Assembly (NCBI GenBank): GCA_026026165.1
Contig: JAPEUD010000087.1
Coordinates: 1-64,000, forward strand
DNA from: Sarea resinae
Lineage: Eukaryota
Direction: 5' to 3'
DNA length: 64,000 nucleotides
The notes beneath the pieces were generated by a model. The model did not search any database and was not told the DNA's origin. It was given only the letters and a program-made list of their open reading frames with translations. Position 1 is the stretch's first letter, and each line of letters starts with the position of its first letter. Below, piece after piece: positions 2,796-51,000 of this stretch. The position numbers were made by a program, and so were the translations under genes.

Positions 2796-4083
2796 ATGGA
2801 GGGGCTTTTCTATAACGTGGACAGCGGGTATGTGCAATTCAAAGGGTCGTCTTCGATCATGCTCACCCTATGCAATCTAGCTATATCGAAGGCGTCGTTC
2901 GTGGCTATCGGAATACTCTCTTGACCGGCCAGAACTATAGCAACCTGACACAATGCGAGACCATCGATGGTATATCTTCTTCAGACTATTGGAGACTCCA
3001 AGCTTCAATCAGCTCTAACGAAGCCCGCAGACGTCAAGCTACAGCTCGCGCCAGCTTACGGCGACATCCTGGCAGCCCTACCCCCGAACCCCTCAACCTC
3101 TTCTCTTGCCGCCAAGACGACCGAAAAAATGGTGGCAGAATTCCGCTATCTACAGGCCAATGCTGTAGGCTCGCTGGCAAAGTTCATGGAATTCCTGACC
3201 TATGGCTACATGATCGACAACGTCGCCCTCCTCATCACCGGCACTCTCCATGAACGCGATACCCGAGAACTGCTAGAGCGATGCCACCCACTTGGCTGGT
3301 TCGAGACCATGCCCGTTCTCTGCGTAGCCACCAACATCGAGGAACTCTACAACTCCGTTCTCATCGAGACCCCATTAGCGCCGTACTTCAAGGGCTCCCT
3401 GAGCCACCAGGACCTAGACGAGCTGAACATTGAAATCGTGCGCAACACCCTCTACAAGAACTATCTCGAGGACTTCTATAACTGGGTCAACACGCATCCG
3501 GACGTCAAGGGCACCCCGACGGCAGAAGTCATGTCCGAGGCGCTCGAGTTTGAGGCGGATCGAAGAAGCATCAACATCACGCTCAACTCGTTCGGCACGG
3601 AACTGTCCAAGGCCGACCGAAAGCGGCTCTATCCAAATTTCGGCCGACTATACCCAGAAGGCACGTTGATGCTCTCGCGAGCCGACGATATCGAAGGCGT
3701 TCGTATAGCCGTAGACGGCGTGCACGACTACAAGACCTACTTCGACATGACGGGCCTTTCCCAGGGTGGCTCCTCTGGTGGACTCGGGAACATGTCTGGA
3801 GGAGCAGGCGGTGAGACGAAAAGCTTGGAGGATCTGTTCTACCAGAAGGAGATGGAGCTATCGAAGACGACATTCACGTATCAATTCACACATGCGGTCG
3901 TGTACGCGTGGGTCAAATTAAAGGAGCAGGTACGTTCTGATTCATCGAAAGCCTTACAACGGCCTTTCCTTCCATGCTAATCGCACTGCCTCTCTCTAGG
4001 AAATCCGCAACATCACCTGGATCGCCGAGTGCATCGCCCAGAACCAAAAAGAGCGCATCGGCAACTACATCAGCGTCTTCTAG
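2796..4083 (+). CDS. VMA6: V-type H+-ATPase V0 subunit d; exons 2796-2827, 2881-2969, 3031-3929, 4000-4083
   Basis: MEGLFYNVDSGYIEGVVRGYRN start; YMIDNVALLITGTLHERD and FEADRRSINITLNSFGTEL motifs; C-terminal EIRNITWIAECIAQNQKERIGNYISVF; three canonical introns. Confidence 0.96.
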
Positions 4084-8993: not shown

Positions 8994-9823
8994 GGTTCTC
9001 GTCGTTTGTTTGTTTGCGAGATCTGGCCTGCGGGCTTTGAAGGGACAAAGGAATTGAGGGTGTCACGGCAGGATTGAAATGCGGCAATCCGGTGCATTCA
9101 TACTGCTGCACATGATGATTGCCGCCTCTTCTCTCTGTATTGGCCGCTTCTGGTCAATGGCGATGGGCGCACTGCGCAGGGCGTTTAGGATGCGTTTGTG
9201 AGTGGTCCGTGGGCGATCGCGTAGATCGGCGGCGTCATCACCGCCGCTTGTTGACGATGCGCGCGCGTCGCATCGCTTCTCCTTTGTCCAGACCGCCACA
9301 CCGCTCCAGCAAAGTTGGTCCTGATTCAATTGATCATATCTGAGCATTTCCACGAGTCAACTCAGTAGACTCTGCTCTTTGAGTGAACCCTATATATGAT
9401 GGTTAACTATACAAGTTCCGAAGCTCGCGGCACGCGGAAACTGGAGACGACACACATTGACGACACTAGTACAATACCTGACTATATATTCTTTATTTAT
9501 TCTATCAACTGGCAATGGCCAGTCCCCACTAATATATCATGGCTGGGTGGGTTGAGTCTTTGTTTTGGATTGCGAAGGCCTCATCGAAGCTATTTCCGGC
9601 TTCTCGGCGCCCCTTTTTCTATCCTTTGTTTCTGTCATTCATATAAGCCAGTGAATTCCATCTCTTGATGGATACTGGATTCCTTTCCTTTTCACCTTCT
9701 ACGTCTACTCCAACTAAACGTATAATTTCCTCCAATACCGTCACACCAGGTCTTTCAGCCTCAAAGACGCTTTTATAAATAAGACGTACAAAAAGCTCTA
9801 CATCTGCCCTACCAGACCTCATC

Positions 9824-10447
9824 ATGTCTACGGAACCCATCATCCTCAAGTTCTACACCGAACCTCAGAGCGCAAAAGACTTCAAGGGCCGCACCCTAGA
9901 GGCCATCCTCGGCTTGTCCGACAAGGATCTCGAGTACAGTCATGATTTCATCCAGATCCTCTTTCCACTCCCCGAGGGCTCTCCCTTCAACCTCAGGGCC
10001 CCAGTGATCGACCGCCAAGTCTTCGAGGCCTTCCACTCGCGTCCCGAGCTTCGTGCCCAGCTCCATTCATCCTTTGTTCGAATGCTCAAGTTCTACGGCT
10101 TCGAGACCCACGAGACCGCAGAGGGTAAAGCCGAAGTCACCATCTTGCACGTCCAGACTCTTGGCTTCAACAACCTCAACAAGCGCTTCGACCACAATCA
10201 TCTCCGCATTACCCGCATCATTCGTTCTCTGCGTGTGCTTGGCTTGGAGGAAGAGGCCTTGGCATTCTATAAGGCACTGAAGAAGGTGGCGGAAACGAGT
10301 GGTAAGATCAGTGCCAAGTCGATTATGTTTTGGGGTAGGGCTGCACATAGGCCTCTTCACCTTGCGCCGGAGTTTGAGGATGATCAGGTGGAAGGCGGTG
10401 CGGACTTTCTGCGCGAATTTGAGGAAAGCCGTGGCTTCAAGGAGTAG
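9824..10447 (+). CDS. Opioid growth factor receptor conserved-region (OGFr_N-like) protein, copy 1
   Basis: Intronless 207-aa ORF with LEYSHDFIQILFPLPEGS and DHNHLRITRIIRSLRVLG motifs. Confidence 0.85.
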   Translation: MSTEPIILKFYTEPQSAKDFKGRTLEAILGLSDKDLEYSHDFIQILFPLPEGSPFNLRAPVIDRQVFEAFHSRPELRAQLHSSFVRMLKFYGFETHETAEGKAEVTILHVQTLGFNNLNKRFDHNHLRITRIIRSLRVLGLEEEALAFYKALKKVAETSGKISAKSIMFWGRAAHRPLHLAPEFEDDQVEGGADFLREFEESRGFKE

Positions 10448-11462
10448 AATGGTCGACAAGGTACGGACTTAGACTAGTTCCTTGATTATTCATGGCCAAT
10501 TCTTTCATTACGCCCAATTCTTTCGATATGTCAATTTCTCAAGCGTCTCCTATCTTGTGAACGTACACGTAATATCGGCTCCAAATCGAAGGGAAGCACT
10601 ACCCTTTTCAGCTGGCCTTGATTACTCGGACTTGTTTATATACAGATTCAGTATGTGAATTCTTTATTTGATTCTAAGATCGGGACGGTTCGCCTCAATA
10701 AACGGATGAATACTTTCTAGCTTAATCCGGCCATTTTGTCCTTGATCCCTAAAGCATTGTTTTGTATCTCATTACCCTTCGGGCTAGCCTATACCTCTCT
10801 TCCTTTGTTCCCTAGCTTTCCATATGCTATTCGGCTTAGACATTGAAATCAGAGGGCTCGCTCTCTTTCCTCCGCTCGCTTCAATCTACTGTCCATTGTT
10901 CTTTCAACTTCATTGTGTTGCTGGATCTTTATGTTCTAAACGATGTTCAGGTTCTAAACAGTATAGCTTGACCGGCATCTCTTCTGCTAGATCAAGCTGT
11001 ATCCAATCTTTGTTCTTCAAGCTTTGTTAGGCAGGCCTGTCTTTATTATCTTGCAATACGCTTTCCAAGCTATGTTCAACCCGATAGCTCTCCAACACCT
11101 GTCGTCCTGCCTTTATGTTTACCCTCACTGTTCTCCAGTCTGAAGGGGCTGTCCAGTCTTCATTCTCTTGCACTGCTATGCTACTTGGCTCTTGTCTTCT
11201 ATCTTGATCGCTGTTCTGGCTCCCTTTGGCCGCTTTGATGCATTGTTTGGTTTAAACAAGTCCTTTCGACTTGGCTTTGCCTCCTCTCCTGTAAATTGCT
11301 CGGTGTGTTCAAAGTATCTATATAAGCCCCTCAATCCTCGTCGAATAATTCTCTTTCCAGCTTTAAACTGTCTGTCTTCAGTATTAGTCATTTCATCCAC
11401 TTGTTTTCGACCCTTTTATCTCATCTTTTATCCCTGAGCTAATATCTCATCAATCAATAACC

Positions 11463-12164
11463 ATGGCACATGTATGGCAGTCATCGCCGCCAAGCAGCCC
11501 GAGTCAACCTTCCCAGCGCCACACTGATACGGAGAGGATTCTCTCCTTCTATGACTACACGCAAGGTAAAGATTTCCTCGGCCGGACCTTGGAAGACTAC
11601 CTGAGCTGGACTAACAGTCAAATCGAGCACAACCAGTCATTCTTCTGGAAAGCGCTTTTCCCGATCCCCGAGCGATCCAACAGCTGCCCCCTTGCCCCCG
11701 TCGTCACCGAGGAGGTCTTTGACGCCTTTCGGGCACCCACCCTTCAAGGCGATCATCTTCGCTACAACCTGGGACGGGCGGTCTTGCGCATCGTCAGGTA
11801 CCTGGGATTCAAGCAACATCCCGAGCGCGCGGAGATATATTTCGTCATGACGAATAATGCCGGATTCGGGGCGCAGGGCTGGCTCAATCGCTACGATCAC
11901 AATCACAGGCATATCAGTCGCGTGCTTCGGTCCCTGAGGGTGCTGGGTGATGACGGAGACGCCGGGGCTCTTTTTCTCGCGGTGCTGCAGGTCTTTATTG
12001 CTCTGTATCCCAACGAGACCGGGCACCCGGCAGAAGGATACATAGAATCCGAGGCCCTGGTGCATTGGGCACATGCTGCACGTAGACCCTTGCACTTTGG
12101 TCTCAACCAGCCGGACCATGATGCTGAGGACAATTGCGTACAGTGGATTAGATGTAGGGTATGA
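11463..12164 (+). CDS. Diverged OGFr_N-like protein, copy 2
   Basis: 233-aa ORF sharing DFxGRTLE, LFPxPE, FxAFxxxxxxR, DHNHxxIxRxxRSLRVLG and WxxAAxRPLH motifs with 9824-10447. Confidence 0.75.
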   Translation: MAHVWQSSPPSSPSQPSQRHTDTERILSFYDYTQGKDFLGRTLEDYLSWTNSQIEHNQSFFWKALFPIPERSNSCPLAPVVTEEVFDAFRAPTLQGDHLRYNLGRAVLRIVRYLGFKQHPERAEIYFVMTNNAGFGAQGWLNRYDHNHRHISRVLRSLRVLGDDGDAGALFLAVLQVFIALYPNETGHPAEGYIESEALVHWAHAARRPLHFGLNQPDHDAEDNCVQWIRCRV

Positions 12165-13128: not shown

Positions 13129-14459
13129 CTATTCCAGCAGTGAAGCCTGATTCGTATAGAGCACATCCACGACACTGCTGAGCTTCTCCAGCGTAGTCAA
13201 TGCAGCATCGTATCCCTGATCGCGCTCCGCCTCGTCGAAGATGATCAAGCACCCGGTACCCTGGTCCAGCACGCCGATGATGACCTTATCCAGAATCATC
13301 TGCGAGAGCTTCCGCTCGACTTGCTGCGTGTCGAGACCTACCATCTTGGCGATGTGCTCGATTTCGACGCGGCTGAACGGTTCGATCACTTTGATCAGGT
13401 TCTGCTCCAGCATGGCGTCGTAGAGGCGTCGGAGGTGGTTGCGGATGAAGGTGTCGCTGCCGAGCTCGTAGCGGTAGTCCGAGAGCGCCTTTTCGTATTC
13501 TTCGAGACTGCGGTTCGAGTGTGCGCGCGCCACGGCTTTCATGGCCTCGAGGTTCTTGCCTGCGTATTTTGTGGCGTGCTTCGAGGTCATGAGCTGGTTG
13601 ACGTCGTCGCCGAGGTTGAGCATAATCTTGCAGAGGAGCATGTACTGCAGCGCCGAGGTGGCCTTTTGAGTCTCGTCCTGGGAATGGTAGCCCTCGAGGG
13701 CCTCGATGAAATAGGAGAAGGCGGTGTTGAAGTCTTTGTCTTCAGCGTGTAGCATTCCTGACTGCATGTCCAGACCAGCTTGGAGCAGTGGCGGCGTATA
13801 TACTGATGCTGCCGACGTTCGGGCTGCTGTCAGGGCTGCACGACCCTTAGGGACGTTTCCAAGGGCATGGTATACCCGGGATTCGAGAAGCTGCACTTCG
13901 ACGAGGACGAGCTTGTCATCTAGGCGTTTGAGCTCCTTCAGTAGGCTGTTGATAAGGGTGAGGGCATCGTAGTAGGACTGCTTTGCCATGTATAGAGAAA
14001 CGAGGCGAGTTTCAAGATTCTGCCGGAGGAAACCTCGACGTTCGGAGATGGCCCACTCGATACATGATTTCGTGACGGAGATTTGGGTTTCCAAGGTGTT
14101 GGGGATGGCCGAGAAGAAATCTAGGAGTTGGCGCACTGGAGATATTGTAAGCTCCTACACAGGGATGGTATGGGGCAATGGTATAACATACCCAGCTTCG
14201 CAGTTTTTGCCTTTGCGAAGGATGACAGCTCTGATCGACTTGTTCGCACCAGCTCCGCGAGCTCATCTGGCTTTTTGTTGTCTCGGTACAGCGCCCCCAG
14301 CCCGGTCAGAGCAGCTTCATAAGTCCCCAGCGCAGCTTCGCTCGAGCCTGGGCCCTTGGATAGTAGGTCCTTGTAGACAGCTTCCGCCTTTGCTGGGTCG
14401 GATTTTGCGAGCTTCTGCGCCTCTTCTATGCGGGCCGCATGTTCGGGCACAGGCGCCAT
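13129..14459 (-). CDS. RPN6: 26S proteasome lid subunit Rpn6 (PSMD11); exons 14459-14192, 14135-13129
   Basis: KAKTAKLVRQLLDFF; LLKELKRLDDKLVLVEVQLLES; PCI domain IEPFSRVEI..VERKLSQMILDK. Confidence 0.96.
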
Positions 14460-14723: not shown

Positions 14724-16166
14724 ATGGTAAGCCACAATATAGCCAGCGATTTGGTCAACTCTCCTAACCTCTGTCTAGAAAATAAAAGCTCTCTCACGCT
14801 CGACGTCCTCCGCCCAGGAGCCAGGATCTAGTGTTTCTCGGCTCCCCCGCAACCTCGATCCTGCCCTGCATCCTTTCGAGAGGGCACGGGAGTATACTCG
14901 AGCTCTAAATGCCACCAAACTGGAGCGCATGTTTGCTGCGCCTTTCATCGCTCAGCTAGGGAAAGGTCACGTCGATGGCGTTTACACTATGGCCAAGGAC
15001 CCGGGGTCGCTGGAGAGATTTGCGAGTGGTAGCGGAGACGGTGTGGTGAAGGTCTGGGACTTGACAAGCAGAGAGGAGATCTGGAATGGCCAGGCACACG
15101 AGGGCATTGTCAAGGGAATGTGCTGGACGAAAGACCAGAAGTTATTGTCATGCGCAAGTGACCGTACGGTCAAGCTCTTCGATCCATACAACACACCCTC
15201 TGGCACGGCTCCTATGGCCACATACCTGGGCAAGACTGCCTTCACTGGCGTCACGCATCATCGATCCCTCCCGACGTTTGCAGCCTCTTCCAGTAATATC
15301 TCCATCTACGACCTTTCCAGACCGTCATCTAGTCCGATGCAGACGCTTGCGTGGCCCACCTCGACCGATACGATCAACACCGTTGCTTTCAACCAGACCG
15401 AAACCTCCATCCTCGCTTCGGCGGCGACAGACCGATCTATCGTCCTATACGATCTCCGAACGTCGTCTCCTCTGTCGAAAGTCGTGCTCTCCTTGGCATC
15501 CAACGCCATCTCGTGGAATCCTATGGAGGCTTTCAATTTCGCCGTGGCGAACGAAGATCACAACGTCTACATTTTCGACATGAGAAAAATCGATCGAGCT
15601 CTGAACGTGCTCAAGGACCATGTGGCAGCGGTCATGGACGTCGAGTTTAGTCCGACGGGAGAAGAGCTCGTGACAGCTTCGTACGATCGTACTGTGCGAC
15701 TGTGGGATCGATCTGGCGGCCACTCTAGGGATATCTACCACACCAAGCGAATGCAGAGGTAAGTTCCCAAACACCACTTTTGGCTTGCTAGATCTAACTT
15801 CTTTCCAGGGTGTTCTCAGCCAAGTTCACGCCCGACTCGCGCTTCATCCTCTCTGGCTCCGACGACGGAAACGTGCGACTCTGGCGCGCGAATGCGTCCA
15901 GTCGAGAAGGTATCATGTCGGCGCGCCAGCGCCAGAAGCTCGAATACGACGACGCGCTCAAAGAACGCTACAAGCACATGCCGGAGATCCGTCGGATCCG
16001 TCGCCATCGGCATCTTCCCAAGCAAGTCAAGAAGGCGGGCGAGATCAAGGGCGAGGAGCTCAAGGCGATCAAGAGGAGGGAGGAGAATGAGAGAAAGCAT
16101 ACGAAGAAGGGACTGCGCAAGAGACGCAGTGAGAGAGAGAAGATGATTCTTGCCAACGAAAAGTGA
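14724..16166 (+). CDS. SOF1: U3 snoRNP/SSU processome WD40 protein Sof1 (DCAF13); exons 14724-14726, 14779-15758, 15809-16166
   Basis: Spliced start MKIKALSRS; RNLDPALHPFERAREYTRALNATKLERMFA; HSRDIYHTKRMQRVF; Sof1 C-terminus MPEIRRIRRHRHLPK. Confidence 0.96.
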
Positions 16167-16700
16167 AAAGTGAAAAGGGGAATATTGTGGTCTTTACGTC
16201 GAGGCCGGGCGTCATGTGTATGACAGGCGTTTGAGTACTTAGCTCGGTGCATTGGTAGGCGTTCTTCACATATCCCTCATTTAGATCAAATCAACAGGTG
16301 AGGCTTCACTTCCCGCTTTACTGTGCTGTGTCTTTTGTTGTTTGCTTTGACAATCGTGGAAGTGATCATCTAAGATTGTTGAGGTGGCACTCCCACATGA
16401 CCGCCAGATAATGTCATGATGTGATGAGAGCAAGGGGCACTAAAAGTTGCGTCGGAGCACGGCAGACTATGGTCAAAAGCTCAAAATGTTGATAGAGGAC
16501 CATTGATGCACAAAGAGGCAAAACTGGCGGATGGGAATACCATCATCACTGAGAGTGACAGTAAAACACGGTCATGACGCGTGACATGGAGGACAGAGCA
16601 AACACGCTCCGCCGTCCAACACCAGCCCCCCAAAATTTCCCTCGAAGCACAAAAGTCACCGAATAGCTTCACAGAACGCCAGGCCCCTCGTACGCAGCCC

Positions 16701-16707
16701 ATAAATA
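16701..16707 (+). promoter_or_regulatory. TATA-like element ATAAATA upstream of the tRNA-like gene
   Basis: Lies 33-39 nt 5' of the predicted mature 5' end at 16740, a position typical for TATA-assisted Pol III genes. Confidence 0.4.
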
Positions 16708-16739
16708 CCAAGTTCAATGAAGACCCAATAACCAAAACA

Positions 16740-17040
16740 GCCAGCGTGGCCTAGTTGGTAAGGCATCAGCGGGGTATAACATCAGGCAAGGTAAAGTAGG
16801 GTTCGTGCAGGCGCATCGTGACGAACAGAGGGTTTGCTTGTACCATTGCTTCCTTCCTCGATCGCTTTATCCTTTCATTCATCGCTTCTTTCCTTCATCG
16901 CAACTTTGCTTGGCTCGACTCCCTCTCTCTCTCTTCCCCCTCTGTTCGAGTGATCAGTGTTTGTCCCCGCCCTGCTGAGCCTTTGTCCTGGTGTTCTCTC
17001 TCGAAGCTGAAGATCGGAGGTTCAAATCCTTCCGCTGGTA
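16740..17040 (+). tRNA. tRNA-like Pol III gene (Thr-like body, nominal anticodon GGT, aberrant G32/G33) with a 228-nt intron at 16777-17004
   Basis: Acceptor stem GCCAGCG/CGCTGGT plus A73; D stem GCCT/AGGC; anticodon stem TCAGC/GCTGA; variable loop AGATC; T arm GGAGG-TTCAAAT-CCTTC; A box TGGCCTAGTTGG; B box GGTTCAAATCC. Confidence 0.85.
16777..17004 (+). ncRNA. Structured tRNA intron: long hairpin with a box C/D-type kink-turn (candidate stand-alone ncRNA)
   Basis: Helices AACATCAGG(16778-16786)/CCTGGTGTT(16987-16995), GCAGG(16807-16811)/CCTGC(16971-16975) and CGAACAGAGGG(16822-16832)/CCCTCTGTTCG(16938-16948); k-turn formed by AGT-GATC(16949-16955) and GTGA(16818-16821). Confidence 0.6.
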
Positions 17041-17044
17041 ACAC

Positions 17045-17050
17045 TTTTTT
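17045..17050 (+). terminator. RNA polymerase III terminator (T6)
   Basis: TTTTTT beginning 5 nt after the discriminator base of the tRNA-like gene. Confidence 0.75.
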
Positions 17051-20000
17051 GGAATGTTCTTTTTCTTCTCTTTCTCGGTCTTGATGGTTCAATGGGATTC
17101 CTTTCTGGGGTTTCTCGCAGGAAGAATTGTCATTGTTTACTAGAATTTAGCAATCTATTTGACTCAATGGCACCGAGCCATGAAAGAAGAGTGGCGATGA
17201 ACAATGCACTGCACTTGTCAAAGTGGCCCGTATTGGGGCTCTATTGGGGTGATCCACATCCGGAGTATGCTGAGGCACGAGCAGGCTGGTGAAGAAACAA
17301 CTGATGTAGTAGTGATGGCGCCATGTCGTTGGCGATGAATACCATCGTGCCCGCCAGCGGGGGAATCTGATGAGAGAGCGAAGCGGGGTGACTTCTCACG
17401 AGACCATGATGGACTCAAGACATTACCAAGAGGTACTTGCACGACATCTGCGGTCGCACGTTCGAAACTCGGCATTGGCGATTGTTCTTTATTGTGTCTT
17501 CTGTTCGGCCATTTGGTTAGACTTATGTGGACGTGATCGGTGAATCTGTGTTTATATTTCTGTGCGGTGACGGCGGGTGTCCTTGGTGTTGGCTTCAAGG
17601 TTGTCTGCTAGCATAACTTTCCTGTCCACTTTCCTACCAAATCACCAGGCCTGCTTTCTCCTTGCTTCTCCACTCAGGAAAGTTTCGATAGAAGGAGTGG
17701 AGTGTACAGCATGACATGATGCCTTCCGTTGTCAACTTTTACAGCTGCGAGTGTATCCATCTCCTATCATATCCGTCGTCATAGATTTGGCGCGACGCGC
17801 GCTTAGCCGCCTTCCGCGCAATCGCACCTCCAAAACCCGAATTCAAGGCCTTGGAGCGCACTTCATCCACTCCACTGCACAGAGTGGCACACAGGCTCTT
17901 TAAATTTATACCGCTCGCGTAAGAGTGTAAGTCTTGTCTTGTAAGAATCAAAAGGCCATAATTGAACACACTTCAATAGTAGAAAATGTGGGCACTCGGT
18001 TCACGTCTCACAGAATCTCTTCTCAGGGGCAGGTCTTCTTCCGAGATAGGCTGAGGCTTTTCTAGAATATGCCCGACCTTTTGACTTCATCTGGCTTTTT
18101 TTCTGTGCGACCATGCCTCACCAGGTGACGCTGGCATGCAGGAACGTTATATTAAAAGGGACTTTGGTCGACAGGCACAGACATTTCCAGATCAAAGAGC
18201 CAATCAAAAAGGACATCGAATGCGCCTATCAGAATTAGCGGTTTACAATAGCTCGCCAGACCCTGAATAATAGTCCGAAAGCTTAAGGGGAGGGGGTGTG
18301 CTTGGACTTTTGATGGTCTCTTAAGGGATTGAGTTTGGGAATTGGGTTTCCAAGTGTGTCGATCTCTGGATTTCATGCAGAGAGCGGGCCTTCTCTTCCG
18401 CACATCGTCAAACATGATGAGGATCTTCATCGACATCAAGCCTCCTAGCAAAGGCATGCTTCTGTGCGCAGGCAGTTCGAATCTAGGTGCTTAACGCGAC
18501 GAGGGTCTTTTGATATCGCTTTGGAACAAAGCGTCATCACGACAGGCAATCTCGATGCAAATCTCCTGTCATGACCTCCTCAACAACAGACAATACGGAG
18601 TACGAGATGCGGAGAACCTGGCCGACGTCGCACAGAGACGCAGAAACGGCGTACACAACCCGCTAAGACCTCCGATTGTTTCTCTATTTCGATGCTGTGC
18701 CGCCGCCAGTATGCAATCCTGCATCAAGAAGGAGGTCGCGCCGTCGTTGACGTGTTGTATTAGATGAATGCGACATGATGGCGTTAACTTGGACTTTTAT
18801 AGATGTTCTTCACGAATCAATCCTTATGGAATAGCGCTCTCATCCTCCAGCGAAGCCACTGCCCCGTGAGGAACTATTCTCATTGGCAGCCACATGCTTC
18901 GACTTCCAAGCTGGAGGTTCCTTCGCGTCTCGTCTCGTTCGTCTCATAGGAGCTGTTCCACGGGGACCTGATGCGTCGCGTACCAGACCAAGCTAGGCGG
19001 CCAAGTACCAGGGACTTCTGATAAGGCGACTATCACATGGAGATCGTCGCCCGAAAGCCATGGCCGGCAGGTATCAGGATGATAGCCACTCGACCCATCG
19101 TCATTCCAATCCCACTCGGGACACTTTGCCACTTCCAGGGCTGTCGGCTCTAGGACGGAGTTCCGATAAGCAGCAGGACCATCAATCCGCAACCCGGCCA
19201 CCCACAAGATGACTCGAAGCCGGATGAGGTGAGCGGCTTGGTGAGGTGGCCGTGGAGGCGCCGGATATTGATGGATGCCTTTGCTTTAGCTTCCGTCACG
19301 CTGTAGGAGGGTCCAAACGTTTCCTCTCTCGGACCGACTCGATGGTCCATGATTCACGCGAGTAGAGTACTAGGTGTCGGCCATCGTACGGCGCAGGCGA
19401 TAGAGTGGCAATCATGTTGCAGAGAGACGCGAATACTATGCGCAAGGATGGGGGTCAAGATATGCACCGTCGCTGTGCCAGAGCAGTAGTGGGGATGATG
19501 GATGAAGTGGTGGAGGAATGATGATGATGATGCTGATGATGATGGAATGATATCAAATATGGCCTTCCGGTTTCATCGATCATAAATACCTTCACCGTCG
19601 CGTTGACTACCTCACTACTGTGGTACTTCGTACATGCGACGCCGTAGATCCCGATCCAAGGATCAAGACTGCCTGCAACCAGGCATGTGGGGGGTTTGAC
19701 GATAGGGGGTGATCACCATATCACCATGTTTGACGCAAGCAAGATGACTCGCCTGGACAGCAGAGTAAGGTACCTTGAGTAAGGTACCTTAAGGTAAGGC
19801 ATGTACTTCGTACTAGACAACTACTACCATAGTATACTGTGCAGGAGGATGAAGCGACTACTCTACGAGGGTCCTGATAAGAAACTCTACTCGAGTAGTC
19901 GGTACCGTGAGGATAATTGCAGAGCGCCTCCTTGCCCGTCGCCGTCACCCGTTGGCTTTTATCATTACATGCTGTGTCCGTACAGAGTCGAATAGAGTAG

Positions 20001-20741
20001 GGTAGGTCGCACCGTCGAAATGGCCGTGCGTCGACTGACGGTTGGTTGCCTGGATCGATGACTCGGTCGGGATCCATCTCTTTGTGTGTTTCGTCTTCTC
20101 TCTAGGCCAAGGCTTTCGAAGGTGGGCGACGTCAAGGTTGGCTGCTTGCTTGCTTGCCTGCTTGGATTGCCCAATTCCGCCTGCTATCACATGCTTGCGT
20201 CCTGACCACCACGTAACGCCCAATTATCCCCATCACGCAAGGCACCCAGGGCTCCCAATGCACAAACCGGTATCCCATCTCTCTCTCTCTCTCCCTCTTG
20301 ACGATAATACCACACCTTCATCATCTCTCCATTACACAATCTCATCCATATCCCCCTCCATTCCGTGCAGCCCACTCACCAGTCACCGACACTCAATCGC
20401 GTTGGAATCCACCTAGTCACTACCTCGAATACTTGGGACCCGGGAACGGTTTTGTTGGAGCAGACATAACACTACAAATCATTGAATACGAGTAGGTAGG
20501 TAGCTAGCTTCCCATGTGATTTCAACCGCGTGAATCCTTTCCCACGTCTCTTTCTCCTGCACATGCACAGCTCTTGCAGAATCTTCTTCTTCTGATACTC
20601 ACACCTTCCTACCGCACGACTGAGAAGAGACGAAGATTGTAAGCCGGATCCATCATCTATCATGATACCGAAGCCCGACTCAACTGCTGCAGCAATGAGG
20701 TGCAAAGCTAACGTGCTTTTCGATCTTATCACAGATCACAT

Positions 20742-21388
20742 ATGCCCCACGCCGAGGACAGCACCATGAGCGGACCAACTGTCAACGGCGAGAAGCCATC
20801 TTCTCAATTCATCTCCGTAAGTCCTGGTCCGGCGACTTGTCTCTTCCCCAAGCTACGTCTTGTTCCATTCAGGACAGCCGCTGACTTGATCAACAGCATC
20901 TGGCATCACTTCCCGTTGTCTCCGACTCTATCTCGACCTTCAAGTCCAATCCTTATGGAAAGAAATCCATTGAGCTCGCCGATACGGGTTATGCCAAGTT
21001 TGCCAAGCCAGTCCTTCCGTATCTTTCCGGTCCTTATGGATACGTCTCTCCCTATGTCCACAAGGTCGACTCCATCGCCGACAGTGGTCTAGGCAAGGTC
21101 GAGGAGACTTTCCCAATCGTCAAGGAGGACACTGAGAAACTCAAGGATAACGTCATCAGCGTCGCTTTCTTCCCTCTCCATATTGCCAGCCAGGGTCAAG
21201 AATACTTGTTCAACACCTACAACAGCGAGTATAAGAAGGTCGGCGGAGAAGGCATCGTGACCACCGGCAAGACTGTCGTCTCCACGGGCCTGCACGTCAC
21301 CTCGGACGTCCTGGGGTGGCTGGGCAGCTGGCTCGGTCCGAAGAAAGAGGCAGCCAAGGATAAGATCAACGAGAAGACCAACAACTAG
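20742..21388 (+). CDS. CAP20: CAP20/MPL1-like fungal perilipin (lipid-droplet protein); exons 20742-20816, 20897-21388
   Basis: Spliced product VNGEKPSSQFISHLASLPVVSDSISTFKSNPYGKKS..PYGYVSPYVHKVDSIADSGLGKVEETFPIVKEDT matches my recollection of the CAP20/MPL1 family; intron GTAAGT..CAG. Confidence 0.8.
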
Positions 21389-27322: not shown

Positions 27323-30300
27323 GGTTGTGGTTTGCTGGGATTTGAGATGGATTGAAATGAGCGGTGGTGAGATTTGCTTGAAGCTTGGGAGCGACTGTGT
27401 GAGAAGGATCGTGTGAGACGTCTCGCCGGGAGATGGGTCTCTGTTGATGATCGTGTGCTGAGGCTGATTCTGATGCTGATGATGAGAACAATGAGAGGTG
27501 ATGAGGGAGAGGGGAGGGGAGATTTATATGTGTTCTCTCTCCCTTTCTCTCTCCCTCTCTCCCTCGCTCCTTGTTTCGCCGAGCCAGAGCCAAAGGATTA
27601 GACGAGGCGCTGGAGAAGAGATCCACGGACGACTGGATATTGACGGAGGGATCGAAGAGCGAATAGGGGTGTATGAAGCATAGTATGGAGTATCATGGAG
27701 CAGACTAGAGTATGGAATAGAGCATGGAGTAGAGCATGGGCGGGTACGGTGGAGTATGGTGGAGTATGTTAGAGCATCGCATGACGGTTTCCTTACCTTG
27801 CTCGTCTCACAGTACCTTACCTTGACCTTCCTTCGCCTTGCCTTGCAGTCGTGGAGCTTTCCTCACCATTCGATACCAATCACGGCTCGCCAGGAGTTGT
27901 GAAGCGTACGATACTGCCTGAAAGGCTCACCCCGTTGGTCTATGAATCCTTAGGCCCGGGCATCTTTCCAGTTGGCAGAAGAACATGATACTCCCATCAG
28001 ACCGAACGGAACGGTGAAACAGGAACGCGAATCTAGTAGATGGGCCAAAGAAAATAAGTATGCGTGTGAGCAGCCGAGTGAGCAGAGTGGAGAGAATTAG
28101 CGAGTCGGTGAGTTCATTTGGTCAAAGAAGGGGAAAAGTAAACAAGATCGTCAACGCTCGGACTCCTTCGTATGCTGACAGCGTGATGATGGGTCCAGAA
28201 TAGACGCTCCACCCCTATGAAACCGCATAAGGCAGGTCGAGCACGACTCTACATACTCGAATCATTGACCAAACGATCAAATGATGGGAACGAGCAGACA
28301 GGCGGCCCAAATATAGGCCTCGGCGCGGTTGGTCAATAGGTGGATGGGTCTGAAGATAGTCAACGGTGTCGCGGTTGAAAGGAGAGTAATGTCCAGAAAC
28401 AAATGCGCCAAAGAGTTTCAGCCCATTATTTTTTATTTTTTTTCAAAAAGATCGTCATAGCGGAACACGTTCCTCCTCCTAGGAGTGATTTTCTCCAGGA
28501 ACCGAGATTCAATTGCTGGATCCAGACGCCCCTGCTGTGAGCCGAACATAAGGCTAGCTTGTCGAGAGGTTGCTGTGCCACAGACTGGCATGCGGTCTCG
28601 CGATCGAAGGATTTGGTCTGCTCGCGGCCCCAGTCTTGCCGAGCAGTGGCCTCTCCAGCAGGTGGCGCGTAGACTGCCATGTCATCGACTTGTGCGAGAT
28701 GGAGACAGCGAGGCGTCGATCTGAGACGAATGAGGTCAACTGATCTTGATGCAGGGTTCTACAAAGCTGCATCTTCGGACGATCGAGGGTTGGAAGTCAT
28801 CATTTCTCGTCGAGGATCTTGGTTCCGCTTGGTCGGTGAGCCGTTACCACGGCAAGGAGGATGCAAGTGTTGATTTTCGCCCCCAGAGTCCGGGCGCGGG
28901 CGGTTCGATATTGGCGCTGAGTGGCTGAGTTGGTGGCCCGGTAGCCTAGATCGCGTCTATTAAGTTCATGCAGAGGCGCAATGCCGGGGGTTCGTAGACT
29001 GCAGTAGAGTCCTCCTCGGTCGTCCCATAGATGATCGTGCTGGCATCAAAGAGCTATCATTGAAGCCTCGATGATTTTGATTGATGACGGCTGAAAGCCA
29101 CCTCACTTCACTTGGTCTGCCGCATTTACCTGTTGCACTAGGGCATTCTGTGGGATGGTAGTAGATACTTCGCGACCGAATCAACCGGCGAACTGCGTGC
29201 GACAAGAAGCTGTTGCAGATAGCTTGAGCGGCTATCGTGATGAATGAGCATGTCGGTCAGTCATTTCATCCCTCTCACCGAGCACTGAGCACTGAGCTTT
29301 CCTCACCCGTGAGGTGGTTGCTGTTGTTGTTGATGTGGGAGGGTGGTGGATATTCGCTTCTCGATCTTTGGCTGTCGACGTGCGCTTCCTATCAACAGAG
29401 AGCCCAAGAAAGCGCAGAGACAAGATGCCCACACAGTGGATGTTGTCATGTGTCCTTCCGAGAAGATGCAGATAGATATCGGGCATTCAAGGTAGACGCA
29501 AGCAAAGGAGATTGCTGGTACTCGCCCTCCCAACAAGGCATCTCTCTCTAGGATGAGGCTCGACGGGCGGCGTCCTGTTACTGCAACTCCTCGTCCTACT
29601 TCTACACCGAGGCTTCTACATGCGCGTCTCGAGCATCGCACGCATCTCGCGAAGAAGCCAACTGATGGTTCCATGTCACGGATGATCATATAAGAAGAGG
29701 ACCGTCCTTGGCACTGCCCAGCGGCCCCAGCCTGTCGGCGGTGATCTGTAGTACCTCTTGGCGGGCGACGTTTGCACCGTCTGACGATGTACTACGATGT
29801 AGATCCGAGAGGAGCGCAGTGTCGAGAGTGGAGCTCGCTCGACGTTGGACCCTGAGGGCAGAGACTCGGAGAGCTTTACTCGGTACCCTCACGTATTCTT
29901 GCTCGGTACTCTAGCAGGTGAAGTACCTCGAGCTACTTACCTCCCCTCGTATGTACTCTACTTCGTAGGTGTCTCGGGTACGGGTGGGGTGGAGTGTGGA
30001 GTGCCCTGGGGAGTGGAGGCCAAGACGAGAGTGAGGTCATCGCTCCGCGGCCTTGTGCACTCTGTGTTGGACCGAAGGAATTACTACCAGGTATACACAG
30101 TAGAGTAGGAGTCCAATGCAATCTTACTGCTCTCGACAAGGCTCAAGGCTGCGAGGCTGTGCCCTGCTACCAAGTACGGCCGAGGAGAAATACGGACGCT
30201 ATCATGGCGCATCTGTCCCGTGAGGCATTTCCGCTGCAGAGCCCCGACGCCAGAGACGGAACAGAGATGGATCTTCAGTCTCGTTTCCCCCGAGCGCGAT

Positions 30301-48079: not shown

Positions 48080-51000
48080 TCACCCGAGAGAGTACGAAAA
48101 CTCGGCATCAGCTCGCCCGTGATCGTGTTCATGATCATCGTCGCTGGGGCTGAGGCGCAGATCGCCGTCGCCGCCGAGGCCGATGCCGTTCCTGCTGTCA
48201 TGGCCGTCCTCGTCGTCGGCGGCATCGCTATTGTGACGAGAGGGAGTGAGCTCAACACCACCACCACCTGCACCGGGATTTTCAGAATCAGAGCTAGTCG
48301 TAGAATCAGCCTGAACACCACCCTGAAGCTCATCCGCGACCTGGTGTCCCTGCAGCATGCCGAGCAAGAGGGCACTCCGCTCCTGAGGATCCGTGACGCC
48401 GAATCTGGTCCTGACGATCTCGTCGGCCTGTTCGAACGAGACGCCACGCATCGGCGGCGCTGGAGCCTGCTCATCCGTCGTGCTCATCAATGCCGCCGGA
48501 GTGGCCTCGTCGCCGCTGTCGCCGGCTGCATCTTCCGCCACAGTAGCAATTGCCGTCGCGATCGCGGTGGCGGTGGCCACGTCACGACCAAGTCTCTCGT
48601 CGGCCGCCGCCGGAGAAGAGGGAGAGGAGGGGGAGGATCGCAGGATGGCGGCTATGCTTTGCCGGACGCGCTGTCTCATCCTTTCGCTCTCGCGGGCCCG
48701 GCCCCGGGCCATTGCGCTCTCCCTAGCCCTTGCGCGCTCCTGCTCACCACCAACACCTTCGACCGATCCATCTCCACGTACCGTCACGCCCTCCTCGGTG
48801 AAGCGACTGCTCCTGTTCCGCTGAATCGGACCCCGGAGCAGACCAGTGCCACTCCCAACATGAGACATCCTCCTCTCCCGATCACGTTCGGCAGACTCAG
48901 TCTCATGGCCCTCGTGACGGCGCGCCTCGCGTTCAGCCGCATCCCTCTCCATCTGCTCTTCCCTCTCGCGTTCGGCGGCAAGAGCTCGTTGGCGAGACTC
49001 GGGGACAACCAGGTAGTCCTGCTCCACTTCTACCGTGGCCTGTGGATGATCAGAGCGTCGGCGGGCGTTTCTCAGTTGGCGGACATGTGATGCCGACATC
49101 GACGGCGGTGGAGCACTAGGAAGGGAAACATCGCCGTCCCCTTGAGCTTCTGCGTCGTCTCGAAAAGGATTGTCGTCATTGATTTCTTCTTGGAGACGTG
49201 CAATATTTGAGGCGTCAATACGGTTCCCAAGGAAATGCGAATCACCGTTCGTATACCCGCTCATATAGATATCCCCAGAACCGTCCGCAGAGGTAGCGAC
49301 GCCGATCATGCCATCAGCAGCACCATCCGTACCACCAGCACCCACTTCATTCATAGCAGCACGACCAGAGTCACCAGGAGGATTGCGAACGGCGTGCCGT
49401 AGCCTCTCGGAAGCCCGAGTAGGACTACTGCCCTCAGACCCGCTCACACGACCCAACATCCTCGCGAACAGGTTCCATGCAGATGCTGAGCGCGCTCGTG
49501 GGTTCCTGCTACCGATGTGATGGTCGCGCGAGTACGGAGTTCGGCTGAGGTTTCGCTGCTCGTGGGATCGGCGCCTCCTACGAGGATTGGCGATAGTAGG
49601 GCTGGGACAAATGCCGGCCATGGATGAATCAGTCGGTGACGCGGTGACGGTCAACCCCGGCGCAAAAGGGGCGCTTCGTACGCCAATCTGACTGCTGACC
49701 TGACCACGATCCTGAACATCACCATCGCCGCCCCCAACACTTTCCCTAGGGCGAGCGAAGAGGTTGAAAAATCCTCCATGATGCGGACGACGTGGTTCTA
49801 GATTCGCCGGTGTTTGAGGCTGCGAGTCCGGAGGTAGAGAGTCATTGTAGACAGCCATGCTGTGGTGCGGCGTATTAGGTGGCGGAGGGTCAGGTGAGGG
49901 GGTATAGTGTGGAGCTGCGCGGGCTGCTTGAGGGTGGTCAGGGGGCGCGGGCGGTCGTTGGTGGCCTTGTTGGCCTTGTTGACCTCGTTGACTTTGATGA
50001 CCCTGGTGAGGTCGTGCATGTCGCTGACCTCGCTCCCATCGTTGACCGTGCTGACCCTGTTCGCGACCTTGATGCCGTCCACGCTCATGATGAGTCTGTT
50101 GCCACTGTTGCTCACCGGACGAAATTAAACCCGAGGTCTGGCTGGAAGGATTTGGCGATACTCTGGGATGATATCTGTGCGCTGGAGGTGCCAGGACATC
50201 GTGCATCGATGGCAGGCTATACTGGCTAGAAGGTGAGGCTGTAGCGTAACCCGGGTATGGGCCAATTCCGTGATGATCATAAGTCGAGTGCATAGCCGTC
50301 TGGGCACCATCCACAAAAGGAGAAGCCATTGGCTGGTAAGGTTCTTCTGATAGCCACTCGGGTTGATCATGGAGGATATTGTCCGAACTCCACGGCGTCG
50401 AGGAGGACATTGAGAACAGGGGCGCGCGGGCGTTGAGATGTGGGTTCAGTACATGCAACCGTGAAGATGGCACGCTGCTTGTTGCATCTGTAGAAGCTGG
50501 ATGACTCTGTTGTCGAGGAAGGACTGTGGGAAGACGTTGGTCGGCAAAACGAGAGGCTTCGGATGGCACGAGCGGGGTGGTGCTTTGCTCAAGCTCGACA
50601 AGTGTGCGTTGAGGGCTTGTCTCTAGGGATTCGGGAGCACTGTTGCCCATTTCGCCGTGTCTCAGTACTGCTCGGGCGGGAGAAGACGAAGCCGAAATAG
50701 GGTATGCATTCACAATCGAGGGATTATCGTCGGCGGCGCTGAGGCTTCGATTCGAGCTGTCATCAGGCTCAGACTCGACGTATGAATAGGTATGGCTTCT
50801 TTGTCGATAACGACGGTTTCGAACCCACCTTCGATCAGCGGTTGATGGATGCGGTATCGGTGACCGAAGTGGCCCTTCACAAGTCTGACTAGCATCATCC
50901 TTTCCAGGGGAAGTTGAAGCTGCTGATTGAGAGATATGGAGGGATGACCGAGGAATGCCAGCCTGTACGCGCTGTCGTGGCTGTCGCGTCAGTTCCAAAG

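Follow-up and report, generated by a model that had tools for sequence, protein, structure and literature searches.

Canonical nuclear tRNA introns interrupt the gene at 37/38, a single nucleotide past the anticodon on its 3′ side, have no conserved ends and are cut by the SEN/TSEN endonuclease (PMC4090602; excerpt of the 2023 review PMC10275265). According to the same excerpt, the tRNA introns of budding yeast measure 14–60 nt and those of other organisms reach at most 133 nt; loop nucleotides N33–N35 form a helix with the intron, and a further pair, which joins C/U32 to the purine at the antepenultimate intron position, lengthens this helix and yields a bulge-helix-loop, so that the position 32 partner in this anticodon-intron pair is C32 or U32 (PMC10275265). 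For fungi, no tRNA intron longer than 100 nt is known according to an excerpt of a paper on A. niger (PMC6108506). Other RNAs associated with tRNA genes include, as described in excerpts of the respective papers, Neurospora crassa milR-4, which RNase Z and Dicer produce from a tRNA-Ala precursor transcribed by Pol III (PMC3547838), Drosophila tric31905, a stable circle of 113 nt derived from a tRNA intron (PMC4536317), and yeast free tRNA introns, which regulate mRNAs (bioRxiv 10.1101/2025.11.19.689297). In archaea, the tRNA-Trp intron encodes a box C/D guide (PMC4090602).

The locus analyzed here lies in a 64,000-nt stretch of fungal nuclear DNA (hereafter, the window). Like canonical nuclear tRNA introns, its intervening sequence is inserted at 37/38, one nucleotide 3′ of the anticodon, and lacks conserved ends; loop positions 32–35 can form a helix with the intron, and the 3′ and 5′ splice sites can occupy a 3-nt bulge and a loop, respectively. 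Unlike these introns, it is 228 nt long, outside the range catalogued in the excerpt of PMC10275265, contains a 47-bp hairpin, would rely on a G32–C pair, and leaves a loop without pyrimidine-32 and U33. With milR-4, as it is described in the excerpt, the locus shares an origin in Pezizomycotina, the combination of tRNA and hairpin in a Pol III transcript (a putative one in the present case), and the use of a tRNA-processing enzyme that would free the hairpin. However, the strands of the milR-4 hairpin are located between and after two normal tRNA genes, with release by RNase Z, whereas in the present case one tRNA-like gene that does not decode harbours the hairpin in its intron, from which the splicing endonuclease would release it. 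The resemblance to tric31905, within the scope of its excerpt, consists of an unusually long, structured intron at 37/38 with the excised form as the notable product; in contrast to the present intron, that of tric31905 is half as long and becomes a circle through metazoan RtcB-type ligation. The host of tric31905 is a tRNA-Tyr gene with a usable anticodon. Fungi ligate with Trl1 (excerpt of PMC10275265), and therefore a linear intron is favoured here.

If the locus were a scaffold for an RNA product, it would resemble the archaeal tRNA-Trp intron in being a tRNA intron with a separate RNA (PMC4090602). This precedent, invoked in an earlier note on the same DNA, turned out to be inapplicable: there is neither an exact C box of the form RUGAUGA nor an Rfam snoRNA match at the locus, and the sole D-like CTGA (16975) is 18–24 nt away from the nearest C-box-like hexamers, so that a box C/D guide RNA was rejected. 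The pseudogenes and discarded models of A. niger, as far as the excerpt of PMC6108506 describes them, are similar in that they were found only when long introns were allowed and have an unusable loop; the present locus, by contrast, has an intact tRNA body, both boxes, a terminator and a strand-specific hairpin, and the discarded models are not described in the excerpt, which precludes comparing them directly. As functional analogues, milR-4, tric31905, the yeast free introns and the archaeal guide come closest; none of them has a hairpin within the intron of a non-decoding tRNA-like gene.

Anatomy and identity of the tRNA-like locus

The tRNA-like locus spans positions 16740–17040 of the + strand and consists of two halves, 16740–16776 and 17005–17040, separated by 228 nt at 37/38 (Table 1). 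On direct reading, 21 of the 21 stem pairs are formed in the complete cloverleaf (19 Watson-Crick and 2 G·U), and the stem lengths (7/4/5/5 bp) are those of a tRNA. The conserved tRNA nucleotides are all present, namely, T8, A14, G18 and G19, A21, C48, T54, T55 and C56, A58 and C61. Matches to the A box and B box were identified with general consensus patterns; since chance alone would give roughly one match per 64 kb to either pattern, only their joint placement, with a spacing of approximately 270 nt, is informative. Yeast TFIIIC tolerates a spacing of this size. The T6 tract downstream of the discriminator is the first run of at least four Ts on the + strand since position 16333. The earlier note had described four paired stems, intact A and B boxes, a first acceptor pair G1–U72, a TATA-like element upstream and T6 downstream, and the present reading agrees with it on all of these points.

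Table 1 Features of the tRNA-like locus and its surroundings in the 64,000-nt window.
Feature	Positions	Strand	Remarks
RPN6/PCI gene	13129–14154	−	
SOF1 gene (WD40 repeats and Sof1 domain)	last ORF ends at 16166	+	Pfam PF04158, E = 4.3e-34; upstream of the tRNA-like locus
TATA-like element ATAAATA	16701–16707	+	33–39 nt 5′ of the mature 5′ end; from sequence reading
5′ exon (tRNA positions 1–37)	16740–16776	+	loop nucleotides G32 G33 G34 G35 U36 A37 at 16771–16776
Acceptor stem	16740–16746 with 17033–17039	+	includes G1·U72
A-box match TGGCCTAGTTGG	16747–16758	+	2 matches in the window vs. 0.94 by chance
D stem	16749–16752 with 16761–16764	+	D arm 16749–16764
Anticodon stem	16766–16770 with 17006–17010	+	
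Intervening sequence	16777–17004	+	228 nt; spliced form called tRNA-Thr(GGT)
Hairpin 5′ arm	16778–16832	+	67% purine
Apical region	16833–16937	+	105 nt; 80% pyrimidine; mostly unpaired in the centroid
Hairpin 3′ arm	16938–16995	+	pyrimidine-rich
Intron nucleotides able to pair with G35–G32	16999–17002	+	C17002, the antepenultimate intron base, opposite G32
3′ exon (tRNA positions 38–73)	17005–17040	+	starts with A38; discriminator A at 17040
Variable loop AGATC	17011–17015	+	
T stem	17016–17020 with 17028–17032	+	includes G50·U64; T arm 17016–17032
B-box match GGTTCAAATCC	17019–17029	+	3 matches in the window vs. 1.1 by chance
T6 tract, candidate Pol III terminator	17045–17050	+	5 nt past the discriminator

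A default ARAGORN run made no call, and neither did a run with the intron fixed at 37/38. When introns were allowed, a long-intron search that the earlier note had proposed, ARAGORN recovered exactly 16740–17040, albeit in a Glu(CTC) model that places its 226-nt intron elsewhere than at the canonical 37/38 site (score 105.0). Removal of 16777–17004 by script, that is, of an intron at the canonical 37/38 site, leaves a 73-nt tRNA, which ARAGORN with its default thresholds identifies as tRNA-Thr(GGT) (score 112.7). We attribute the lower-scoring Glu(CTC) model, with its shifted stem closed by a G·A mismatch, to the CT run and rejected it as an artefact. In block-shuffled versions of the window, the intron mode of ARAGORN yielded 4 matches in 9.6 Mb, or about 0.03 per window. 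Given this low rate of false positives and the Thr(GGT) call for the spliced form, the locus is tRNA-derived. The Rfam search reported no family at the gathering threshold in the window and none at E-values up to 10 in the region 16600–17200, the tRNA model included; the search covered the unspliced form, and silence of this model is expected for a gene divided by an insert of 228 nt. The D arm and the AGAUC variable loop appear threonine-like.

A chance resemblance, that is, an ARAGORN-type false positive without tRNA ancestry, could appeal to the matches found by the long-intron mode in shuffled sequence and to the silence of the Rfam tRNA model, although the latter is expected for a split gene. 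Against this explanation, the expected number of false positives is far below one per window, and the 21 stem pairs, both boxes, the tertiary positions and a T6 tract 5 nt past the discriminator all coincide. We consider such a resemblance very unlikely, to the point of being scarcely credible.

The start of the tRNA-like locus is 574 nt from the SOF1 stop codon, and no Pfam-detectable ORF is present across the approximately 4.7 kb 3′ of that stop. A protein-coding interpretation was rejected, the ORFs across the locus and downstream of it having no Pfam match. The only sequencing run listed as containing the stretch is a DNA run, the probable source. A single assembly contig of this probable source run spans the entire locus with a depth of 351, compared to 347 in the flanks, which argues against a young multi-copy family. 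Neither a second copy nor a complementary target was found within the 64-kb window, and the two candidate boundaries of the insert show no target-site duplication. Sequencing contigs of two other organisms from the same study (80% likeness) align over the SOF1 coding sequence only and supply no orthologue of the locus. A 31-nt segment (17003–17033) is also matched by a contig of one of these organisms (X3) and by a low-depth X1 contig, the match belonging to another tRNA. A metagenome scan with an 18-mer from the 5′ half returned 20 loci, 0 of 20 being relatives, and scans of prokaryote genomes and viral contigs with a 23-mer from the 3′ half gave 0 matches. A literature search by topic retrieved no paper on a long tRNA intron, and in a literature search with a 12-mer from the D arm only unrelated primers were matched. 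A tRNA-derived SINE was rejected as well: the two halves lie on either side of the insert and together form a full acceptor stem, an A-rich or repeat tail is lacking, and the window contains no other copy. The locus is no recognisable mobile element, matches no Rfam family and is non-coding by Pfam.

Anticodon loop and splice-site geometry

Canonical splicing would produce the loop G32 G33 G34 G35 U36 A37 A38 (GGGGUAA), in which purine-37 is present and both pyrimidine-32 and U33 are missing, so that a normal anticodon loop is not formed. No combination of exon ends around the insert yields a 7-nt loop with pyrimidine-32 and U33. In tRNAs, U33 is near-universal and position 32 is occupied by a pyrimidine; the usual U-turn of the anticodon loop is incompatible with G32 and G33, and G34 is not the usual eukaryotic means of reading ACC/ACU. 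Because the spliced loop is without pyrimidine-32 and U33, normal decoding is excluded, and the description of the GG-GGU-AA loop as non-decoding in the earlier note stands. The conclusion that the spliced product is unable to serve as a normal decoder is based on these general rules and on the C/U32 rule in the excerpt of PMC10275265.

A helix between 16771–16774 and 17002–16999 is possible, with the pairs G32–C17002, G33·U, G34–C and G35·U; in the anticodon-intron pair G32–C17002, the identities are reversed relative to the usual C/U32–A/G. When 16999–17002 pair in this manner, the 3′ splice site GA^A is in a 3-nt bulge, and the 5′ splice site UA^U, opposite CUC, is in a loop that ends at the 9-bp basal helix of the hairpin (16778–16786 with 16987–16995), which the earlier note had described and folding confirmed. 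However, the minimum free energy (MFE) structure of the precursor prefers a register shifted by one (16998–17001). Both this shift and the ease of chance pairing with the G run arise because the intron partner is located in a CTCTCTC run. Hence, of the preserved splice geometry claimed in the earlier note, the 4-bp helix, the GA^A bulge and the TA^T loop can be drawn, whereas the MFE register differs and such pairing may arise by chance. As judged from sequence, the bulge-helix-loop geometry is compatible with splicing, at a level that chance pairing could also produce.

The hairpin within the 228-nt intron

Folded on its own, the + strand of the intron reaches −66.7 kcal/mol (z = −3.3; 1 of 200 shuffles as good), compared to −49.8 kcal/mol for the minus strand (z = +1.03). 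The earlier note had described the intron as structured, and it is strongly so on the tRNA strand only. The two arms (55 and 58 nt) are joined by 47 pairs, 37 Watson-Crick and 10 G·U, and among the mismatches there are 0 A·C oppositions. Because the arms differ in composition, the 5′ arm being purine-rich and the 3′ arm pyrimidine-rich, each was shuffled separately in the null model (1000 shuffles). The native arms exceeded the shuffles on the + strand (z = −7.35, 0 of 1000 as good) and, less strongly, on the minus strand (z = −3.66, 1 of 1000 as good). The arms are therefore truly complementary, and a large part of this complementarity is confined to the RNA made from the tRNA strand. A stable hairpin on the tRNA strand is the structure expected of a milRNA precursor.

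In a neutrally decaying DNA palindrome, A·C oppositions are expected as often as G·U. The observed ratio of 10 G·U to 0 A·C points to selection on an RNA helix or to strand-biased C-to-T change linked to transcription, and either cause implies that the + strand is transcribed now or was transcribed formerly. In the full 301-nt precursor, the MFE and centroid structures both retain the whole cloverleaf; all 21 cloverleaf pairs are present in the MFE with the native intron, and the same is true for only 23 of 300 shuffled introns. The apical region includes a (CT)n run and short tandem-like repeats (16872–16887 and 16888–16903). Four or more consecutive Ts are absent from the transcribed unit, though the intron is 35% T; as a sign of T-run avoidance in the intron, this was rejected as too weak, given that TTTT is also missing in 8% of the shuffles and in 120 of 440 T-matched + strand windows. 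A direct repeat (16757–16769 and 16773–16785) and an 11-nt repeat (16638 and 16997) were dismissed, both being at chance level by our own estimate.

Taken as a whole, the observation made in the earlier note, namely, the anatomy, the loop and the hairpin, is confirmed; the box C/D precedent and a splice geometry beyond chance are not. The interpretation given in the note is thus supported in part: its proposal that selection maintains the transcription and processing signals would depend on orthologues, of which the contigs and scans covered here supplied none.

Origin and possible products of the locus

From these sequence features, we tentatively read the locus as a single-copy tRNA-Thr paralogue that no longer decodes, has kept its Pol III and splicing signals, and carries an expanded intron; this reading is adopted because the GGGGUAA loop, without pyrimidine-32 and U33, cannot decode normally. 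The ancestor would have been a working, intron-bearing gene of the threonine type, from which the transcription and processing signals were inherited. Its intron at 37/38 may have grown to 228 nt as a 47-bp imperfect hairpin with a 105-nt CU-rich, slippage-prone cap, and loop positions 32–34 may have turned to G, which together with G35 can pair with CUCU at the 3′ end of the intron. The A and B boxes, some 270 nt apart, would be bound by TFIIIC, and the resulting Pol III transcript of about 305 nt would end at the T6 tract. This RNA is predicted to fold into a cloverleaf with the anticodon stem extended into a long rod; the tRNA splicing endonuclease could then cut at the possible bulge-helix-loop, and the ligated product, with its GGGGUAA loop, would be incapable of normal decoding. 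We infer that the locus is transcribed and spliced and that it lacks function; no selected function is assigned to it today.

The interpretation as a relic is suggested by the aberrant loop (G32 G33 G34 G35 U36 A37 A38), for which no splice register restores a normal 7-nt form, the Glu(CTC) solution scoring lower; by G1·U72 and G50·U64, which fit C-to-T decay; by the low-complexity CT cap with tandem-like repeats, such as unconstrained slippage would give; and by the singleton status of the locus, with no relative in the window, the metagenome (0 of 20) or the prokaryote and viral scans. Furthermore, ARAGORN models with introns longer than 100 nt (n = 14) were routinely thrown out in A. niger as spurious, according to the excerpt of PMC6108506. 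A close rival, which we regard as possible and somewhat less probable, is a tRNA-scaffolded non-coding RNA, in which the tRNA-like ends provide the Pol III promoter, end processing and stability, and the RNA under selection would be the 228-nt intron set free by the splicing endonuclease or else the unspliced rod (about 300 nt). Several features that favor such a product weigh at the same time against a relic: the body shows no decay other than two G·U pairs, with all 21 pairs, the conserved nucleotides, both boxes and T6 kept; independent neutral change at three neighboring loop positions predicts a far more damaged body; the 47-bp hairpin has 10 G·U and 0 A·C, whereas neutral decay of a palindrome should give both; this hairpin is far more stable on the tRNA strand in arm-wise shuffles (z = −7.35 vs. 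−3.66; 0 of 1000 as good) and in the folding of the whole intron (z = −3.3 vs. +1.03); the native intron leaves the tRNA fold undisturbed, unlike all but 23 of 300 shuffles; and G32–G35 are complementary to the 3′ end of the intron, where G32 opposite the antepenultimate C maintains an anticodon-intron pair, reversed in identity, despite the loss of pyrimidine-32. The absence of a run of at least four Ts from the transcribed unit adds a weak point (8% of the shuffles are alike), and milR-4, tric31905 and the yeast free tRNA introns are precedents. In a specific form of this alternative, also possible and no more probable, the locus would be a Thr-derived Pol III scaffold with a rebuilt G32–G35 loop, from which the splicing endonuclease frees the CU-capped hairpin as a stable regulatory RNA or a Dicer substrate; the freed intron would be a long hairpin with a 1-nt 5′ overhang that might resist 5′–3′ decay or be diced. 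Against a scaffolded RNA, the scans recovered no relative and no RNA run is listed for the stretch, the 105-nt apical region looks unconstrained, the 64-kb window contains no complementary target, Rfam has no matching family, and each signal might be a legacy of a tRNA gene that worked until recently. Every point against the relic likewise fits a recently retired gene descended from a working long-intron ancestor. A non-decoding relic is at least as likely as a functional intron or unspliced RNA.

That the gene still works as a tRNA-Thr, either decoding ACC/ACU poorly despite G32 and G33 or being charged with threonine for a non-ribosomal use, appears unlikely. Such activity would agree with the Thr(GGT) call for the spliced form at default thresholds, with the fully intact tRNA body, and with the presence of G35, U36, A37, A38, C2–G71 and the discriminator A, which we take to be features of threonine tRNAs and of recognition by ThrRS. 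However, G32 and G33 clash with the usual U-turn, G34 is unusual for ACC/ACU in eukaryotes, and G1·U72 weakens the first acceptor pair; moreover, we know of no fungal non-ribosomal pathway that depends on threonyl-tRNA. That a foldback or miniature inverted-repeat element (MITE) killed a tRNA-Thr gene by inserting into its intron or anticodon loop seems decidedly improbable. The insert of approximately 220 nt does have complementary ends, and its arms beat the arm-wise shuffles on the minus strand, too (z = −3.66, 1 of 1000). Nevertheless, no target-site duplication is found at the candidate boundaries, the arms are weak at the DNA level (37 Watson-Crick pairs over 55 and 58 nt), a repeat search yielded nothing beyond one perfect inverted repeat of 11 nt and one repeat of 13 nt at 77%, the element would be single-copy in the window, and the insert is placed exactly at 37/38.

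The locus is real and unusual: it is a canonical-like intron-bearing tRNA gene that fails the anticodon-loop rules and falls outside the length range. If it is transcribed and spliced, its intron would exceed every recorded canonical nuclear tRNA intron by a wide margin (228 vs. 133 nt in the excerpt of PMC10275265) and would also contradict the statement, in the excerpt of PMC6108506, that none longer than 100 nt is known in fungi. Models of this kind are discarded by gene finders and curators, so a whole class of tRNA-like Pol III genes with long introns may be overlooked in filamentous fungi. Should the hairpin be the product, fungi would have, besides RNase Z, the splicing endonuclease as a means of turning tRNA precursors into regulatory RNAs; if the locus is a scaffold, it would represent a naturally occurring 'tRNA-scaffold' expression cassette, and its RNA would be the first with a function known from the intron of a fungal nuclear tRNA. 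Were it no more than a relic, as we tentatively prefer, the locus would be ordinary, yet it would show how far the intron of a tRNA gene can grow through inverted duplication and CT slippage after decoding is lost.

Contigs resembling part of the tRNA-like locus

The segment 17003-17033, which spans the anticodon-stem and T-arm region of the tRNA-like locus, shares 30 of 31 nt with one contig from sequencing run X1 and one from run X3 (a different organism), the X1 contig having a depth of 14 vs. ~350 for the main genome. The flanks of both contigs are unlike those of the locus, indicating that the match represents another tRNA, from another organism in the samples; neither contig is an orthologue of the locus.

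Isolated promoter-box matches

The isolated A-box-like and B-box-like pattern matches listed in the table are not accompanied by a tRNA call, and their count in the window is consistent with chance.

Coordinates of isolated box-like matches and of the neighbouring ORF pair
Feature	Position	Strand	Basis
A- or B-box-like match	28922-28933	+	pattern match
A- or B-box-like match	3298-3308	+	pattern match
A- or B-box-like match	50815-50825	-	pattern match
ORF 1	9779-10447	+	Pfam OGFr_N
ORF 2	11388-12164	+	paralogue of ORF 1

Other ORFs in the window

ORFs 1 and 2 are adjacent paralogues (35% identity across 204 aa); ORF 1 matches the opioid growth factor receptor conserved region (E = 5.6e-19), and a Pfam search with E values of up to 0.001 gave nothing for ORF 2. 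With the exception of the tRNA-like locus, no Pfam-detectable ORFs were found on either strand of 16167-20880, the ~4.7 kb located 3' of the SOF1 stop codon, a gap that is long for intergenic spacing in an otherwise gene-dense window. The next gene downstream is likely the ORF at 20885-21388 (+), with a weak Pfam match to Perilipin_2, below the cut-off (27.1 vs. 30.1 bits).
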